From Dictyostelium discoideum (lineage: Eukaryota), in NCBI GenBank assembly GCA_000004695.1, contig CM000152.2, positions 5,920,001-5,984,000 on the forward strand: a stretch of 64,000 nucleotides of DNA. The letters are read 5' to 3'. The translations under genes were made by a program, and so were the position numbers. Below the pieces are notes generated by a model that saw nothing but the letters and a program-made list of their open reading frames with translations, was not told where the DNA came from and made no database searches. Shown here piece by piece: positions 1,147 through 31,124 of this stretch; positions within the stretch are counted from its first letter, which is position 1; each line of letters starts with the position of its first letter.

Positions 1147-10200
<9,054 letters not shown>

Positions 10201-21282: not shown

Positions 21283-23136
21283 TTAACCATTAACAATTTT
21301 GGAATAACCATTTCTTCCTCTACTAATTTTACGAATGATTAAAATCAAAACAGTTGCAATGATAGCAGCACCAATTATAACACAAATTACGATTGCAGCC
21401 ACTTCACCAGGAGATAGTAATGATGGTTTATCAGGTTGATAATCATAGGAACAACTATTTTGAAATTGTTGATCACCTTGAATGGAACAAACTTTACCAG
21501 AACCACAACCAATACCATTTGGAGTTGGTATTGATGAATCGGTATTATTGTTAAATGTCATATTACTAAAGTTTATATTTGAATTTAAACAATAAACTGA
21601 TGAACCAGCAACCGCTTCATTATTTAAGAATTGACAACTGTAGAGATATAATTGACCCTCTTGAGAGAAAATAGAACCACCAATATCGGTTGCATTATTA
21701 CCATTAAATACTGAATTATAGATTTTTACATACTGTTCAGGTAATGAACCATTCATTTGAATTGCACCACCAATGGCTGCTCTATTATTGATGAATGTGG
21801 AAGACTCTATTATAATTGAAGAATCAATGATATTAATTGCACCTGCCGACTCTGTCAATGATTTACTATTGTTATTATTTGAAAATAAACATTGATTGAC
21901 CAATACATTTGAGAAGGAATTACTTAGAGATAATGGTATGGTATTAACATTATCACTAAAGGTACATTGTTGAAAGGTTGTAGTTGAATCAGAACCAAAA
22001 ACAACAAACCCTACACCACCGATTGCATTTGTAAATGTTGTATTTGATATCAAGAACAATGGTGAACCTGTACCCATACCACTTATTGAATTGAAAAAGA
22101 ATGCTGGTGAACAATTACTACCTTCAATCAATGAATTATTCATCACTAAATAACCTGACCAAATATAACCAATACCATTATTACCACTATTATTAAAAAA
22201 TCTACAATCATTAATTGTTATTAGTGTTGTTGAATTTGAAAAAATTATACCACCAATTGTTGTTAATTCTTTTTTAATTTCATTTGATTGATTTTGATTA
22301 TTATTATTTAATATTGTTGTTGTTGTTGTTGTGGTTGTATTAATAAAACTTGAATTAATTATAGTTAAAGTACTATTAATTGCACCAGAACCACCACCAC
22401 TATTACCAATACCATTAATCATTGCAAAACTACCACCAACTTGACTTGCACCATTATTAATAAATGATGATTGATCGATTGTAATATCTACCCAACTACC
22501 TTGATTTAAAATTACTGAACCACTTGATTGGTTACCATTTTTAAATGTAATACCCAAAATATAAATGGTCGTTAAATCATTACTCTTACTTGGTTTAATA
22601 TTTATAAATGAATCAATTGCATCTGTTAAATCAATTATAACTTTATTTGATAAAATAAATGGTGGTGATGATGATGATGATGATGATGTTGTTGATGTTG
22701 ATGTAGTTGAATCATCTGATGATATAACTTCTTTTTTTGAATGTGATTTTGATGAAGGTGAAGAAGAGGAGGAAGAAGAAGAAGAAGAAGATGATGATGA
22801 TGTTGAATCATTATTTATAATATTTATAGTTTTATTGGTTAAAATACCAAAAGTTGTAGTATTTATATAATAAGTACCAGGAACTATTGTTAGGGTAATT
22901 TCTTGATAAGAAGGATTACATGATTGAATTGCACTAAATATTGTTGAACATGGGAAATTCAATGTACCACAACCAACTGAGGAATTTGAACTCGAATCAA
23001 CATATGTATTGCATGTTATAATTTGATTATTACTACCATTATTACTACTACCACTATCACTAATAATATCATTACAATTAACCAGTGAACTTGTAAAATA
23101 AATAATAAATAAAATAAAAAATAATTTTATAATCAT
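21283..23136 (-). CDS. type I membrane protein with Pmp-like (GGA[IV]/FxxN) parallel beta-helix repeats, signal peptide and C-terminal TM anchor
   Basis: True ATG at 23136 (MIIKLFFILFIIYFTSSLVNC). The track start at 23202 is TTG. Repeats with IGGAIQMNGS, GGSFAMINGI, FINN/FLNN/FSNN. Ser-rich linker. TM segment VAAIVICVIIGAAIIATVLILII + RKISRGRN. Confidence 0.8.
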   Translation of the reverse strand: MIIKLFFILFIIYFTSSLVNCNDIISDSGSSNNGSNNQIITCNTYVDSSSNSSVGCGTLNFPCSTIFSAIQSCNPSYQEITLTIVPGTYYINTTTFGILTNKTINIINNDSTSSSSSSSSSSSSSSPSSKSHSKKEVISSDDSTTSTSTTSSSSSSSPPFILSNKVIIDLTDAIDSFINIKPSKSNDLTTIYILGITFKNGNQSSGSVILNQGSWVDITIDQSSFINNGASQVGGSFAMINGIGNSGGGSGAINSTLTIINSSFINTTTTTTTTILNNNNQNQSNEIKKELTTIGGIIFSNSTTLITINDCRFFNNSGNNGIGYIWSGYLVMNNSLIEGSNCSPAFFFNSISGMGTGSPLFLISNTTFTNAIGGVGFVVFGSDSTTTFQQCTFSDNVNTIPLSLSNSFSNVLVNQCLFSNNNNSKSLTESAGAINIIDSSIIIESSTFINNRAAIGGAIQMNGSLPEQYVKIYNSVFNGNNATDIGGSIFSQEGQLYLYSCQFLNNEAVAGSSVYCLNSNINFSNMTFNNNTDSSIPTPNGIGCGSGKVCSIQGDQQFQNSCSYDYQPDKPSLLSPGEVAAIVICVIIGAAIIATVLILIIRKISRGRNGYSKIVNG

Positions 23137-23375
23137 TTTTTTTTTTATTAAACAAATAAAAAAAAAAAAAAATAAACAAAAAAAAAAACTTAATTTGATC
23201 AATTTATATTTATTTTTTTATTTTTTTATTATTTTTATTTTTGTGTGTGAAAGGATTTGAAAAAAAAAATAATAAAAATATAAAAAAAAAAAAAAGAAAA
23301 AGGAATAGAAAAAAAAAAGAAAAAAAATTAAAAATAAAAAAAAATAAAAAAAAATTAAAATTAAATAAAAAAATC

Positions 23376-23855: not shown

Positions 23856-24914
23856 ATGAACAAAGAATTAGTTGATTTAAATAGTTTAATAGAATTTAAA
23901 AGTTTAAAGGAACTTCAAGAATATCCATTCAAAGAATTTATAACAACATTAGTATATAGAGGTTCAGAAGTTTTAACAAAAGAAGATTTACCAAAGAATG
24001 AGAATGGTATTTTAAAAGTTATTAAATTAACTGATATTAGTCAATCCAATATTAATGTTTCAATTATACCAGAAGGAGTTGAAGAATTACATTTCCCATT
24101 CGAGAATGAAACAGTTACAACAAATTTAAAAAATGGTGGTTCATTACCAAAATCAATTAAATCAATTTATAATTTCAATATAAACAGTGAAATTGATTAT
24201 TTAATTGATTCAACTACAATTCCAAATCATATTACAACATTATCATTTAGATGTTATTCAAATTTTAATGGTAATATTAGTAATAATAATAATAATAATA
24301 ATGAAAATTTTAAAATACCAACAACAATAACATCATTAACATTTGGTGATGATTGGAAAAATGGTGGTCACCAATTAAAAAGTGGTGATTTTCATGAAGG
24401 TTTAAAGAATTTAGATATCATTGGATACGATAAACCATTAACAAGTGGTGTTTTACCGCAGTCACTTGAATCTTTATCAATTGGTCATTCAAATGATTAT
24501 ATATTACCACCATCAATTTTTCCTATTAATTTAAAGAAACTATCAATTAGTAGTCAATTTAATAAAGGATTAACCGTACCAACTAGTTCAATACCAAAAT
24601 CAATTACATCATTAAAATTAATGTCAACTGGTTTTGAAATTGATGAGTTTTTATATAGAAACTCTACAATTAAAAATTTAGAAATTTATATATCTTTAAA
24701 AGATCCAAAACAAATCATTACAAAAGAAATGTTACCTTCAAATTTAGAATCATTAACAGTTTCAACTGAATCAAATATAATTGAAAATAATTCATTACCA
24801 ATCACTTTACAATCATTAAATTATTCAATTCAAAATTCAAATTCAAATATTTATGAATTACTTAATAATGGTTTCTTAAATCAAGGTTTAAAAAAATTAA
24901 TTATTAATTTACCA

Positions 24915-24987
<73 letters not shown>

Positions 24988-25484
24988 TTAATAATAATAA
25001 TAATAATAATAATAACATTGATGATAATTGTATCTTCCCAAATTCATTAAAAGAATTAACATTTGGAAATGATTTTAATATTAATTTAAGTAATGGTGGA
25101 TTTTTCAATGAAGGATTGCAAGTATTAAAATTTGGTTATTCATTCAATTCTGAAATTGAATTAGGTTTATTACCAAAATCTTTAAAACATTTAGAAATTG
25201 GTGGTTGTTTTAATAATAAAATTAAAATTGGATGTTTACCAAATGGCTTAAAGATATTAAAATTTGATGAATGGGGTAATTTTAATCAACCTTTTGAATT
25301 TAATGTTTTACCAACTGAATTGGAACAATTATTTTTACCAAAATGTTATAATCAACCATTATTATCACCAGGTATTTTACCATTAACATTAAAAGTACTT
25401 CAAATTCCAAAAAAATTAAAAACTGATAATTTAATTAATGATTCTTCAATTCCGTCATCAATTTTAATAATTAAATTTAATTAA
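23856..25484 (+). CDS. FNIP-repeat protein (Dictyostelium-specific repeat family)
   Basis: About 10 repeats of the LP(K/Q/S)S(L/I)(K/E/T)SL.F...FN pattern (e.g. LPKSLKHLEIGGCFNNKI, LPNGLKILKFDEWGNFNQ). Poly-N tract encoded by (AAT)n at 24915-25010. Confidence 0.85.
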
Positions 25485-25974: not shown

Positions 25975-26173
25975 ATGTTTAATAATTATAATTTTAAAAC
26001 TAAAAATATAACAATAAATGGAGATATTACATTCTTTACCATTGATATCGTTTTAATATTCTTATATATTTCTCTATTAATTTTTACAACTGCATATACA
26101 AAAATAAAAAGTAAATAAATATACATTTATTAAAAATAATATTATAGCTATTAACAAAGTTTACCTTTTTTTT

Positions 26174-26211
<38 letters not shown>

Positions 26212-27124
26212 GAATTACATTTTTTTTTAATATTGGGGATTTTATTTAGAATTTTATCTTTTTCTCTATTTATAGTTAATAGAGAAGGATTAATTCATGA
26301 AAAATATATAGGAGATATACTCTATGTAGTTCATACATTGGGTACATTATGTTTGTTAACTTTATTTTCATGTATTTCACTTTTACTGTAATTATCATTT
26401 TCAATAAACATAATTAATTAAATTATAAATTTATTAATAGAATTTATTATTTTTTTAATATATAAATAAATATAGATTTTCAATATACAATAGGGGGAAT
26501 TGTTATAATATTGATTTGAAATTATATAAAAAAGGAGTAATAATAATAAATTTGGTGGTATATTTTATTGTATTTTCAATGATTTTTTATGAATTAATGT
26601 TTTCTCTAAAAGAAATGAAATCATTTAATACACTACCCTACTCAAAACCTCAAAAAGCAATTCAATTTTTTGTATCCGTAATATATTTATTTTTTGGTGT
26701 TTTATCATTTTTTATTGGTGACATGTATGTATATTCTATAGTATTAAAAAAAAAATAAAAATAAAAAATTACTAATTAATAAAACATTTTAAGGTCTTTA
26801 TTTAAAATTGTAAAAGAATTCAATAGAGATGATGGGTATTACATCAATTCATTTACAAAATTTAAATTTAAATTTGGAAAAGTTTTAATATTCAGTATGT
26901 TATATTTCTTTGTTCGTTTTATTATTACAATAACATTAATTTTCACACCAATCGAACAAACACATGGTATTTTTGAAATTATTTTCTATAGTTTATTCGA
27001 AATTCTTCCAATATCACTAGCAATATGGATAATAGACAAACTTGAAAATGAAGCAATTGAATTAAAAGATTCAAATGAAGAACCAGATAAATTCTCTCAC
27101 TTAAAAGAAGAAGAAAAAATATAA
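25975..27124 (+). CDS. predicted 4-exon gene for a ~275-aa six-TM membrane protein of unknown family: exons 25975..26110, 26276..26387, 26476..26724, 26794..27124
   Basis: Not in the ORF track as a single ORF. Four open segments join through canonical sites (aaaa a|gtaaat...tttatag|; tta ct|gtaatt...tatag|; gac at|gtatgt...tttaag|) with fully consistent phases (1, 2, 2). Six hydrophobic ~22-aa segments. Confidence 0.5.
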
Positions 27125-27253: not shown

Positions 27254-30200
27254 TTATAATAATTTTTGAGATCTAATTTCTTCTAATTTTTTAATAACTT
27301 CAGAAGGTGATCTTGATAATTCTTCAGAGATTGATAATTGTTTTTGATAATTTAAAGTTGAGAATTGTTCACAAAGGTCACCATCGATAATATTTTTAAC
27401 TGGGAAATAATAGGAACGATAGGCAAGATGATCACGACCGCATAATGGTAGACAATCGGATCTCATATTCATTTCTAATGTTGAAAAGAAATCTACGTCC
27501 TCTCTTGATGTGAAGGGGATTAAGGCACCAATGGCACCACTGATGGTTGTGTATAGTATAACCTCTGGTCCACCGACTACCAATGAAGTTTTATTTAAAG
27601 TTGTAACGGTATCACCAACAAAGAAATTAGCTATATGGTCCAATTTATGAGGGGCGCCGTTTAAAGTGCCACTTTCAAATTTCAATTTAGTGCCAGTTGG
27701 ATCCTCTTCAACCTCATCAGAGATTAGTAATGGTAAACGTAATACAAAGATATTACCAAACTTATCGGCACCCGCAACCGTATCATAATCCAACATAACC
27801 GATGAAGTCATCCAACGTGGTGCTAAATCATCTGCAAACACATATAACATATTCTCTGATCGTTTATACTTTATGAAATGAATGCTCTCTTGGATGTCAC
27901 CAACCACCAACCTGTCGCCTAAACTATGAATATTGACGATTGTATTTGGTAGATTCTTTGTCTCACATTTTCTAAGTAATTTCTTTTTACCCATATCATA
28001 GATACGTATTGATTTACCAACACCACAAACCAATTTACCTTGAAACTGTGCCATTGCATAAACTGGTTCCTCCACCTCGGTCTTATAAAGTAACTCCAAT
28101 TTCTTACCACCATCAATGAAACGATAAAGATTTAAATGTGCACTCTTATGACTCTTTGGATTTAATACCATATCAGTTACACAACCAACCACTAAAAATA
28201 TCTCACCACTTTCACCAAATGAACATGTACAAACACTAAATCCTGCCTCACCATCTTCCAACATCAATGACTCTAAAGATTCATGTGTAATTGGATCCAT
28301 AATTTTAATATAAGATTTCCATTTACCTTTACCAGCTTTTGGTTTAAATAATTTTTTAAATGGTTCAATTTCATTATTATTATTTTGATCATCATCATCA
28401 ATATCCATTTCTTGTTGTAACTCTTTTTGTTTTTCTAATAATAATTTTTCAGATTGTTCATTAATTTTATCAATATCAATATTATCTGTATTATAATTTG
28501 TTTCAGTCTCTAAAATTATGATATAACTTGTTTGTGGATGAATTATAAATCTTTTTGGTGTTGCATTTAATTTAATAGTTTCTTGATTGAATAAATCACC
28601 CAATTTATCAATTGAGAAAATTATGATTTTATTTTCACTTGTTGCTACAATACTCTCTGCTGATTGTTCCGATGAAAGATTGGATGCATTCTCTAATGGT
28701 TCAATTGATAATGGTACAATATCTAATTTACCTTGATTAATATAATTTAACCAAACTCTACTTGATAATGCTAACATTGCATTTGAACCTCTAACTTTAA
28801 CTTTAAATAATTTCACCGGTTTTCTACCTAATAATCTTGTTCTAATATCTGATAATTCACCTGTAACACTATCTAATGTTGCACGTTTAACAACACCATT
28901 TTTTAAACCAACAAATAAAAATAATGATCCACCACTTGTGACTGAACTACTTGCTGATGAGGTTGAGGTTGTTGTTGTGGTGGTTTGACCAGTTTGTGAT
29001 TGTGATTTTTTAGTTTCAATACCCATTTCATTTAATTGCATTTCAATAATTGATAAACTTTCAATATAAACTTTATCAGTATCTAACATTGAAACTTGAC
29101 CTAAACAATTATCACGATCTAATGAAAGAACTCTAATTGGACCTTCCCAATCGGATACTGCAATGAAACGTGCCATATTTCTACCTTTTGGAATTGGTGA
29201 AATTTCAATGCATGCTATATCTCTTCTAAGATCTTTTTTAATGATTTCAATTAAATTTGATGCTTGATCCAATTCGAAATAAATGATTTCACCACCACTT
29301 AATGCAATCGCCAATTGTGATTGATTAGCTGATGCACGTACAATGGTTTTTCTGCCTGGTGCTCTCCATTCATTAATTCTTAAATCGGATTTAATATGAC
29401 GGAAACCTGTTGGGAACACTTGAATAATTGCATCGTCTCCCATTGATTTCACTAATAGTGTGGTTGTAGTCTCCAATATACCACTCTCATGATTCTCTTG
29501 AATGGTATCACCAACACTTAACACTGATGTAGTACCAACGAATGATACAACTATATATTTATCAGTTTGGTCGATTGCATTGGGTGAGGTTGATTTTGGT
29601 ACTGTCCAAATTCCACTTGGCACACCAGGTAAATTGGCAGTGGTGATTGTGGTAACCGATAGGCCATGTCGTAACACCTTCAATGACGAATTCAAGCCAG
29701 TACCACATAATGAATAGAGTTGAGGGTTCTCTTCCCTAACTAAATCCAAAACTTTGAAATCGATAATGGGTGACAACGATGATAAATGTGATGTTGGCTC
29801 CAAATTCTTCAACTCCTCCATTTTAGTACCACATGAATTTCTAGGAGTGAACCAAAGATGGCCGTCCTTATCCTCCAATCTCTTGGCTTGGCCCTCTTCC
29901 TCCTCGTCACCAATCGATTTGAAAAAGTATAATGTATGATCACCAAATTCTGATGCAGCGAAAAGGAAGCCGTTCTTCAATACGGTTAAACAATTTGCCA
30001 ATACTATCGTGTCGAAATAGTTTACATTCACCTCTGAAACCTGGTCACCCTGGTAGTCCAATGTGATCTTGTAAAGATCTCCATGCTCTGATTGCACTAA
30101 AAAGAAGAACATTCCCTTTTGTTTATGTGATGAATGAGAGATTATCAATACTCCTTTATTGGGGTCACTACCATATCTACGTGGTATTCTAGAACGCACC

Positions 30201-30680
30201 TCTGCATGATCTTGGTTACGATACACTATATAATCCTCTGATGCTACCAATACACCACCTGGTCCCTCTGTACCACCTGGTACTGTCATCACTATGTTTG
30301 CACTGTCGTCAACTTGATCACTCCATTTTCTAACAACATTATTTAAACCTAAATCCAATTCATAATAAGTCAACAATTTCTTTTTCTTTCCAATATCTTC
30401 ATCCATCATCTCCTCAATTGATCCACCACCACCACCACCACTACTACTATCCTCCTCTGTATAATCAACTGATATGGTTGCAAATATTGGGTTATCAAAT
30501 CCAACATCAACACCACACATTGAAAATACAATTGTATTTGATTTATGTGCCTCCAATGGTGATGAAATTGTTAAATTTGCTGATGAATCTCTATTTAAAA
30601 TATAAACTAATTTTTGTTTTTCAATTGCACCTAAAATTATAATTATAACATATAGTGTATTAATATATATATTTATCTAT

Positions 30681-30711
<31 letters not shown>

Positions 30712-31124
30712 TATAATATATAAGACATACCAATCATAAAAGCTCTTCCTTTTGGATCAACTGCTAAATATTGACCAGGTACAATACGACGACAACCTGA
30801 ACGACCAAAAGTTTCTTGATGAATTTTATCAAATTGATTCTTTTGTGAATTATATTCCAAGATTACAACACGACCAGAATCTGAACCTACGATAATATAA
30901 TCTTTAGTACCACTTGTTAAACGAAATGGTATTATTGATCTAACTATACCAAATACTTCTGTATATAATACTGATTGCATTTTACCATTTTCATCATATC
31001 TAATCAATTCTAATGATCTACCATGATTTAATACTATTTCAACTTGTTTTGTACCTGAAAAATTACCACTAATCGATTGATATACCGATGTTGGTCTTTG
31101 TAATGTTAAATTATATAAATACAT
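27254..31124 (-). CDS. sf3b3: splicing factor 3B subunit 3 (SF3B3/SAP130/Rse1), 2 exons: 31124..30731 and 30630..27254
   Basis: N-terminus MYLYNLTLQRPTSVYQSISGNFSGTKQ... matches metazoan SF3B3 (MFLYNLTLQRATG...). C-terminus ...IIDGDLCEQFSTLNYQKQLSISEELSRSPSEVIKKLEEIRSQ also matches SF3B3. The 100-bp intron 30631-30730 (gtatgtctta...ttttag) restores ...GRAFMIG|AIEKQKLVYILNRD. Confidence 0.9.

Follow-up and report, generated by a model that had tools for sequence, protein, structure and literature searches.

The 64,000-nucleotide stretch of Dictyostelium discoideum DNA analysed here (positions 5,920,001 to 5,984,000 of contig CM000152.2, assembly GCA_000004695.1), which we call the window and number from its first letter, has an extreme AT content. 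At 25975-27124 on its forward strand lies a four-exon gene flanked by an FNIP-repeat gene and the gene for SF3B3/RSE1. This position had been proposed in a preliminary description of the sequence, and it is borne out by the open reading frames and by the domains recorded on syntenic orthologues. The upstream neighbour (23856..25484, forward strand) is a single-exon gene encoding 542 residues, and its syntenic orthologues carry the FNIP domain PF05725. The downstream, convergent neighbour (27254..31124, reverse strand) encodes SF3B3/RSE1; the orthologous product, of 1255-1256 residues, carries PF10433, PF23726 and PF03178. The SF3B3 coding sequence lies in two large open reading frames on the reverse strand (30705-31124 and 27254-30556), consistent with one short intron near its 5' end, at about 30557-30704. 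Farther upstream, a 639-residue open reading frame at 21283-23202 on the reverse strand has an N-terminal signal-like segment, tracts rich in Ser, Thr and Asn, and a C-terminal hydrophobic anchor. In a second D. discoideum assembly, GCA_054883475.1, the gene call overlapping this frame has 1100 residues. The corresponding chromosome of that assembly (CM142509.1) is 99.9% identical to the window over 11.6 kb, with four indels and one mismatch in this comparison. No tandem paralogues of the gene were found within the window.

The four segments proposed for the gene (25975-26110, 26276-26387, 26476-26724 and 26794-27124) are all flanked by GT...AG, and the intron lengths of 165, 88 and 69 nt hold. 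When the exons are joined, they give an 828-nt coding sequence that stays in frame, and its sole stop codon is the terminal one. The product has 275 residues with the acidic C-terminal tail as described, ending in ENEAIELKDSNEEPDKFSHLKEEEKI. The gene had been called unannotated. An exact-sequence look-up showed instead that the 275-residue sequence is DDB_G0282567 (EAL66143.1, XP_640131.1, Q54SA8), named [quoted passage not shown] in the databases, so that the proposed model equals the AX4 reference gene model residue for residue. The annotation of GCA_054883475.1 also has a 275-residue gene at the same position. The locus is a real spliced protein-coding gene, annotated before as a hypothetical protein. 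The preliminary description was right that the gene exists and right in its strand, start and stop and in introns 2 and 3, while the acceptor it assigned to intron 1 is most likely wrong.

Exon 1 (25975..26110) starts with the ATG at 25975, encodes the N-terminus with an NIT sequon and the first transmembrane helix (TM1), and ends in phase 1. Its ATG context and its GTAAA donor are the same in the orthologue alignment, where exon 1 is 127-142 nt long and of phase 1 throughout. In the revised model, intron 1 has 102 nt (26111..26212; gtaaat...tataag) and contains a poly(A) run (26178-26206) and a branch-like TATTAAC at 26149-26155. In GCA_054883475.1 the poly(A) run is shorter by 5 nt. The next 63 nt (26213..26275), intronic in the AX4 annotation, most likely encode TM2 as (K)LHFFLILGILFRILSFSLFIV, with an Arg conserved in the family. 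The remainder of exon 2 (26276..26387), which was the whole of exon 2 in the preliminary description, encodes the loop between TM2 and TM3 and TM3 itself. The revised exon 2 thus covers 26213-26387 and has 175 nt, compared with 178 nt in orthologues. Intron 2 (26388..26475, 88 nt; gtaatt...atatag; 6.8% GC) keeps its position in all orthologues. Exon 3 (26476..26724, 249 nt) encodes the end of TM3, TM4, a predicted luminal loop and TM5, and all four orthologue models have precisely this exon length. Intron 3 (26725..26793, 69 nt; gtatgt...tttaag; 10.1% GC) contains TACTAAT at 26770. Exon 4 (26794..27124) encodes the predicted cytosolic loop 3, TM6, TM7 and the acidic tail, including the family invariants R228, E256 and P259, and closes with a TAA stop at 27122-27124. 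All of these parts are on the forward strand.

At least five other group-4 Dictyostelium genomes have a syntenic orthologue, and every intron position is conserved. Two genomes of D. cf. discoideum, together with D. firmibasis, D. dimigraforme and strain ACTFIW, carry the gene in the slot between the FNIP gene and SF3B3. Pairwise dN/dS ratios are 0.30-0.57, and the gene is under purifying selection. A pseudogene or a chance open reading frame is ruled out by the synteny, the conserved intron positions and the dN/dS values below 1. The identities to the window protein are 81% and 70% in the two D. cf. discoideum genomes, 47% in D. firmibasis and 46% in D. dimigraforme. In the same four genomes and the same order, SF3B3 is 98%, 98%, 92% and 93% identical, and the FNIP gene is 86% identical, not detected, 68% and 72%. 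DDB_G0282567 is thus the fastest-evolving of the three genes. Outside group-4 Dictyostelium its clade was not found. The family has a third, intermediate sub-clade (P0008, P0028 and P0011; about 35% identical to the window protein), which occurs in D. dimigraforme, D. citrinum and D. cf. discoideum. Intraspecific hypervariability, as suggested by P0027, was ruled out: the "D. discoideum" strain concerned is about 93% DNA-identical across the whole region. In several new Dictyostelium annotations the gene call starts at an internal Met and covers only the C-terminal half, as in KAM9964048.1 (P0027, strain ACTFIW, L007:6354-7519), P0003 (D. citrinum, 168 residues) and P0009 (161 residues). The L007 DNA encodes a full orthologue, TM2 included.

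Comparison with the orthologues led us to a different 3' end for intron 1. An acceptor at 26212/26213 (tataag/AATTAC) in place of 26275/26276 adds 21 in-frame codons (LHFFLILGILFRILSFSLFIV) and gives a stop-free product of 296 residues. With this product the identity to the orthologue P0001 rises to 81%, and the segment of 21-22 residues is aligned. P0001 and P0002 have 296 residues and P0006 has 292; all three carry the extra 21-22 residues between TKIK and NREG, and exon 2 is 178 nt long in each of these annotated full-length orthologues, whose gene models are themselves predictions. The annotation of D. dimigraforme is like the AX4 model, but a conserved upstream AG allows a 178-nt exon 2 encoding FFYYLLLSGIIFRLFLFSLFIV. 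The annotated D. dimigraforme protein (KAN0031234.1, P0007; L004:6001-7320) has 264 residues, uses the distal intron-1 acceptor and is without TM2; the upstream AG at 6239/6240 of L004 restores the 178-nt exon 2. The 286-nt "intron 3" of P0007 also removes some of the TM5 that all the other orthologues retain.

The 63-nt segment itself has the properties of coding sequence. Among five species, the differences in the segment number 56/22/82 at codon positions 1, 2 and 3, a coding pattern. Its GC content (15.9%) is that of an exon, compared with 15.4% in exon 1 and 8.8% in the remaining intron 1. Only 12.8% of the local non-coding stretches of 63 nt are free of stops. The segment is open in D. 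dimigraforme and in strain ACTFIW, and in the latter, residues 46-104 align in one unbroken frame. In tblastn searches with the distant paralogues P0008 and P0028, the exon-2 alignment begins at 26212. All five species compared have the proximal AG. In D. discoideum and the two genomes of D. cf. discoideum, a TA[CT]TAAC motif, which may be the branch site, precedes this acceptor by 53-58 nt. The TM2 motif G..xR..SF is found in all 15 aligned sequences except two models that splice TM2 out. Since it is shared across the family, this motif lends independent support to the revised exon 2. We infer that intron 1 most likely ends at 26212 and not at 26275, that the D. discoideum product has 296 residues with an additional TM2 bearing the conserved Arg, and that the reference AX4 model probably omits one transmembrane helix. 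The only short public contigs with parts of the gene, those of Logan, run collinear with the locus through the introns and represent unspliced genomic DNA.

The distal acceptor of the AX4 annotation could serve in D. discoideum, alone or alternatively. If it served alone, the 275-residue protein with six helices would be the true product, and D. discoideum would have lost TM2 relative to its sister species. The site is a canonical AG that keeps the frame and is preceded by a good pyrimidine tract (ttttctctatttatag), and it is the one chosen in both the AX4 reference and the newer assembly annotation. The distal AG (26274-26275) is conserved in three of five genomes, including D. dimigraforme and L001. 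It is missing in two species, reading AA in L006 (D. cf. discoideum) and TT in L005 (D. firmibasis). Moreover, two earlier AGs (26211 and 26248), both downstream of the branch-like motif, would have to be skipped to reach it. The 63 nt before it have an open frame and the base composition of an exon, and they specify the conserved TM2, Arg included. Loss of a single helix would also invert the topology of the other six, including R228, E256 and P259. We therefore consider exclusive use of the distal acceptor unlikely.

Use of both acceptors is somewhat less probable still. In-frame alternative 3' splice sites 63 nt apart would then yield seven- and six-helix isoforms, as would be compatible with two canonical sites in the same frame and with the conservation of the distal AG in three of the five genomes. 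The six-helix isoform, however, would have a scrambled topology and would probably not function. Alternative splicing is not known to be common in Dictyostelium, and this also argues against two isoforms.

The preferred reading, a single 296-residue product, alters the predicted topology. By Kyte-Doolittle analysis its hydrophobic segments are at residues 18-40, 47-67, 79-105, 122-145, 163-185, 214-236 and 246-268. The six transmembrane segments first described are thus probably wrong, as the in-frame acceptor at 26212/26213 gives a seven-helix protein matching the orthologues. Seven helices without accessory domains are a property of the revised model only; the 275-residue model has six. Lys and Arg total 16 in the predicted cytosolic loops, compared with 7 in the others. 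The N-terminus with the NIT sequon is predicted to be luminal or extracellular, and the prediction puts the Lys/Arg-rich loop 186-213 and the acidic tail in the cytosol.

The fold was modelled on the orthologue P0001, which is 81% identical to the window protein. From a shallow alignment of 14 sequences, AlphaFold2 predicted seven long helices with a pLDDT of 74.9 and a pTM of 0.72; with a 3-sequence alignment the P0001 model was unusable (pLDDT 48.5). The seven-helix bundle of the model can be superposed on solved G protein-coupled receptors (GPCRs), and the fold is accordingly described here as a predicted GPCR-like one. No sequence-level match to any solved structure was found in the PDB, and the identity to classical GPCRs (TAS2R, class A, Ste2 and GABA-B 7TM domains) is only 4-11%. 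Resemblance of fold to GPCRs does not by itself imply G-protein signalling.

The preliminary description had recognized no family and had suggested a small transporter or a receptor-like protein. The relationship emerges when the relatives of the protein are considered. The THH1/TOM1/TOM3 family (PF06454, formerly DUF1084) gave no match to the 275- or the 296-residue protein even at E<=10, its gathering cut-off being 25 bits. An hmmsearch with a profile of the orthologues against 1.84 billion representative proteins found 15 relatives, with E values of 6.9e-13 for P0012, 2.7e-8 for P0015 and 1.7e-5 to 3.4e-4 for P0016-P0019. The PF06454 cut-off was passed by 6 of the 15 aligned relatives, P0012, P0015, P0016, P0017 and P0019 among them. 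P0012 is the D. discoideum protein DDB_G0287239 (Q54KM4), which UniProt names "THH1/TOM1/TOM3 domain-containing protein", and the matches in Cavenderia and Tieghemostelium have the same name. Comparison of the close clade with the canonical set by hhalign gave 270 collinear columns with a probability of 99.8% and an E value of 2e-29. In the 15-sequence alignment Y174, R228, E256 and P259 are invariant. Of the conserved polar signature of the family, the window protein has R58, Y174, R228, E256 and P259, while the WW[KL]D that belongs to it, before TM7, is replaced in this clade by HGIFE.

Word-indexed searches were uninformative. With the 15-sequence profile only four matches were returned, as AT-rich words swamped the candidates. 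With P0015 three unnamed PF06454 proteins were returned, so that these searches did not connect the protein to any named TOM1 or GPR137 sequence. The profile search, the PF06454 hits of the relatives and the hhalign comparison together argue that the protein is a divergent, fast-evolving paralogue in the THH1/TOM1/TOM3 seven-helix family; a small transporter without a family is rejected. Several orthologues and the canonical members end in S/T-P-[LI]-[LI] (SPLL, SPLI, SPII or SPIF), which might be a sorting signal; the window protein has SHLK at the equivalent position.

The only Pfam match of the window protein itself is to DUF2975 (PF11188), at 16.1-16.3 bits and an E value of about 0.01, below the 27-bit cut-off of this 130-position model. 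The protein might on this ground be a lineage-specific orphan or a DUF2975-type protein unrelated to TOM1/THH1, with the family hits produced by hydrophobic, AT-biased composition. P0001 scores 28.8 bits against DUF2975, marginally above the cut-off, and P0002 bears a precomputed PF11188 label. This match covers only residues 160-281, that is TM5-TM7, whereas the THH1/TOM1/TOM3 alignment is collinear through all seven helices. The E values in the 1.8-billion-protein library are graded from 1e-13 to 3e-4, and the polar residues Y174, R228, E256 and P259 are invariant across the family. We regard an unrelated origin as very improbable and the DUF2975 match as probably a compositional false positive. 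The DUF2975 label on the orthologues could propagate into automated annotation.

Taken together, we put at about three in four the probability that DDB_G0282567 is a real gene whose 296-residue product has seven helices and a GPCR-like fold and is a fast-evolving THH1/TOM1/TOM3 paralogue. Like the plant members of this family (TOBAMOVIRUS MULTIPLICATION 1/3 and THH1), the protein has about 290 residues and seven transmembrane helices without extra domains, shares the predicted GPCR-like fold, and places an Arg in TM2, a Tyr in TM5, an Arg in TM6 and E..P in TM7. It differs from them in scoring below the Pfam threshold, in having HGIFE for WW[KL]D, and in the acidic tail KLE.EA.EL..S..EPD, which is conserved within its own clade. 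The paralogue DDB_G0287239 (294 residues), the canonical family member of D. discoideum, is from the same species and has a similar length and the seven-helix layout. Its identity to the window protein is only about 28%, and it passes PF06454 with an E value of 8.6e-9. Between D. discoideum, D. citrinum and D. firmibasis, DDB_G0287239 is conserved to 90% or more, whereas DDB_G0282567 is 47% identical in D. firmibasis. A literature search found no papers mentioning either DDB_G0282567 or DDB_G0287239.

GPR137 and GPR137B are metazoan lysosomal GPCR-like proteins that regulate Rag and mTORC1. They are small seven-helix proteins without extra domains, as is the window protein, and GPR137 is a possible functional analogue. 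GPR137 has been described as a lysosomal seven-transmembrane regulator of mTORC1 with homologues in D. discoideum, in a survey that treats GPR137 and THH1/TOM1/TOM3 as separate families (PMC12716839). In plants, TOM1 spans the membrane seven times, resides in vacuolar and other organellar membranes and co-purifies with the lysosomal-type small GTPase ARL8 (PMC3234234).

By analogy with plant TOM1, we propose that the window protein serves endolysosomal or vacuolar membranes as a scaffold, or in a receptor-like way, and is not an enzyme. Loop 3 and the conserved acidic tail would be its contacts to cytosolic partners. Both the localization and the partners are suggested purely by distant homologues. 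On a further, tentative proposal, which we hold to be possible but rather doubtful, DDB_G0282567 and the group-4 orthologues would form a young, fast-diverging offshoot of the ancient TOM1/THH1 family. The replacement of WW[KL]D and the gain of the acidic tail would then suggest that this offshoot was recruited as a receptor or scaffold with a lineage-specific task, for example in social development or in the handling of intracellular bacteria.

What is new here is a probable error in a reference gene model and a family assignment; general concepts are unchanged. The lack of TM2 in the AX4 and D. dimigraforme gene models changes the predicted topology and blocks recognition of the family. If our reading is true, the AX4 model without TM2 hid the relationship to TOM1/THH1 for two decades. 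A "hypothetical protein" would gain a family, THH1/TOM1/TOM3, and a GPCR-like predicted fold. Dictyostelium would gain a second, fast-evolving paralogue to set against the conserved DDB_G0287239 in the study of endolysosomal seven-transmembrane proteins.
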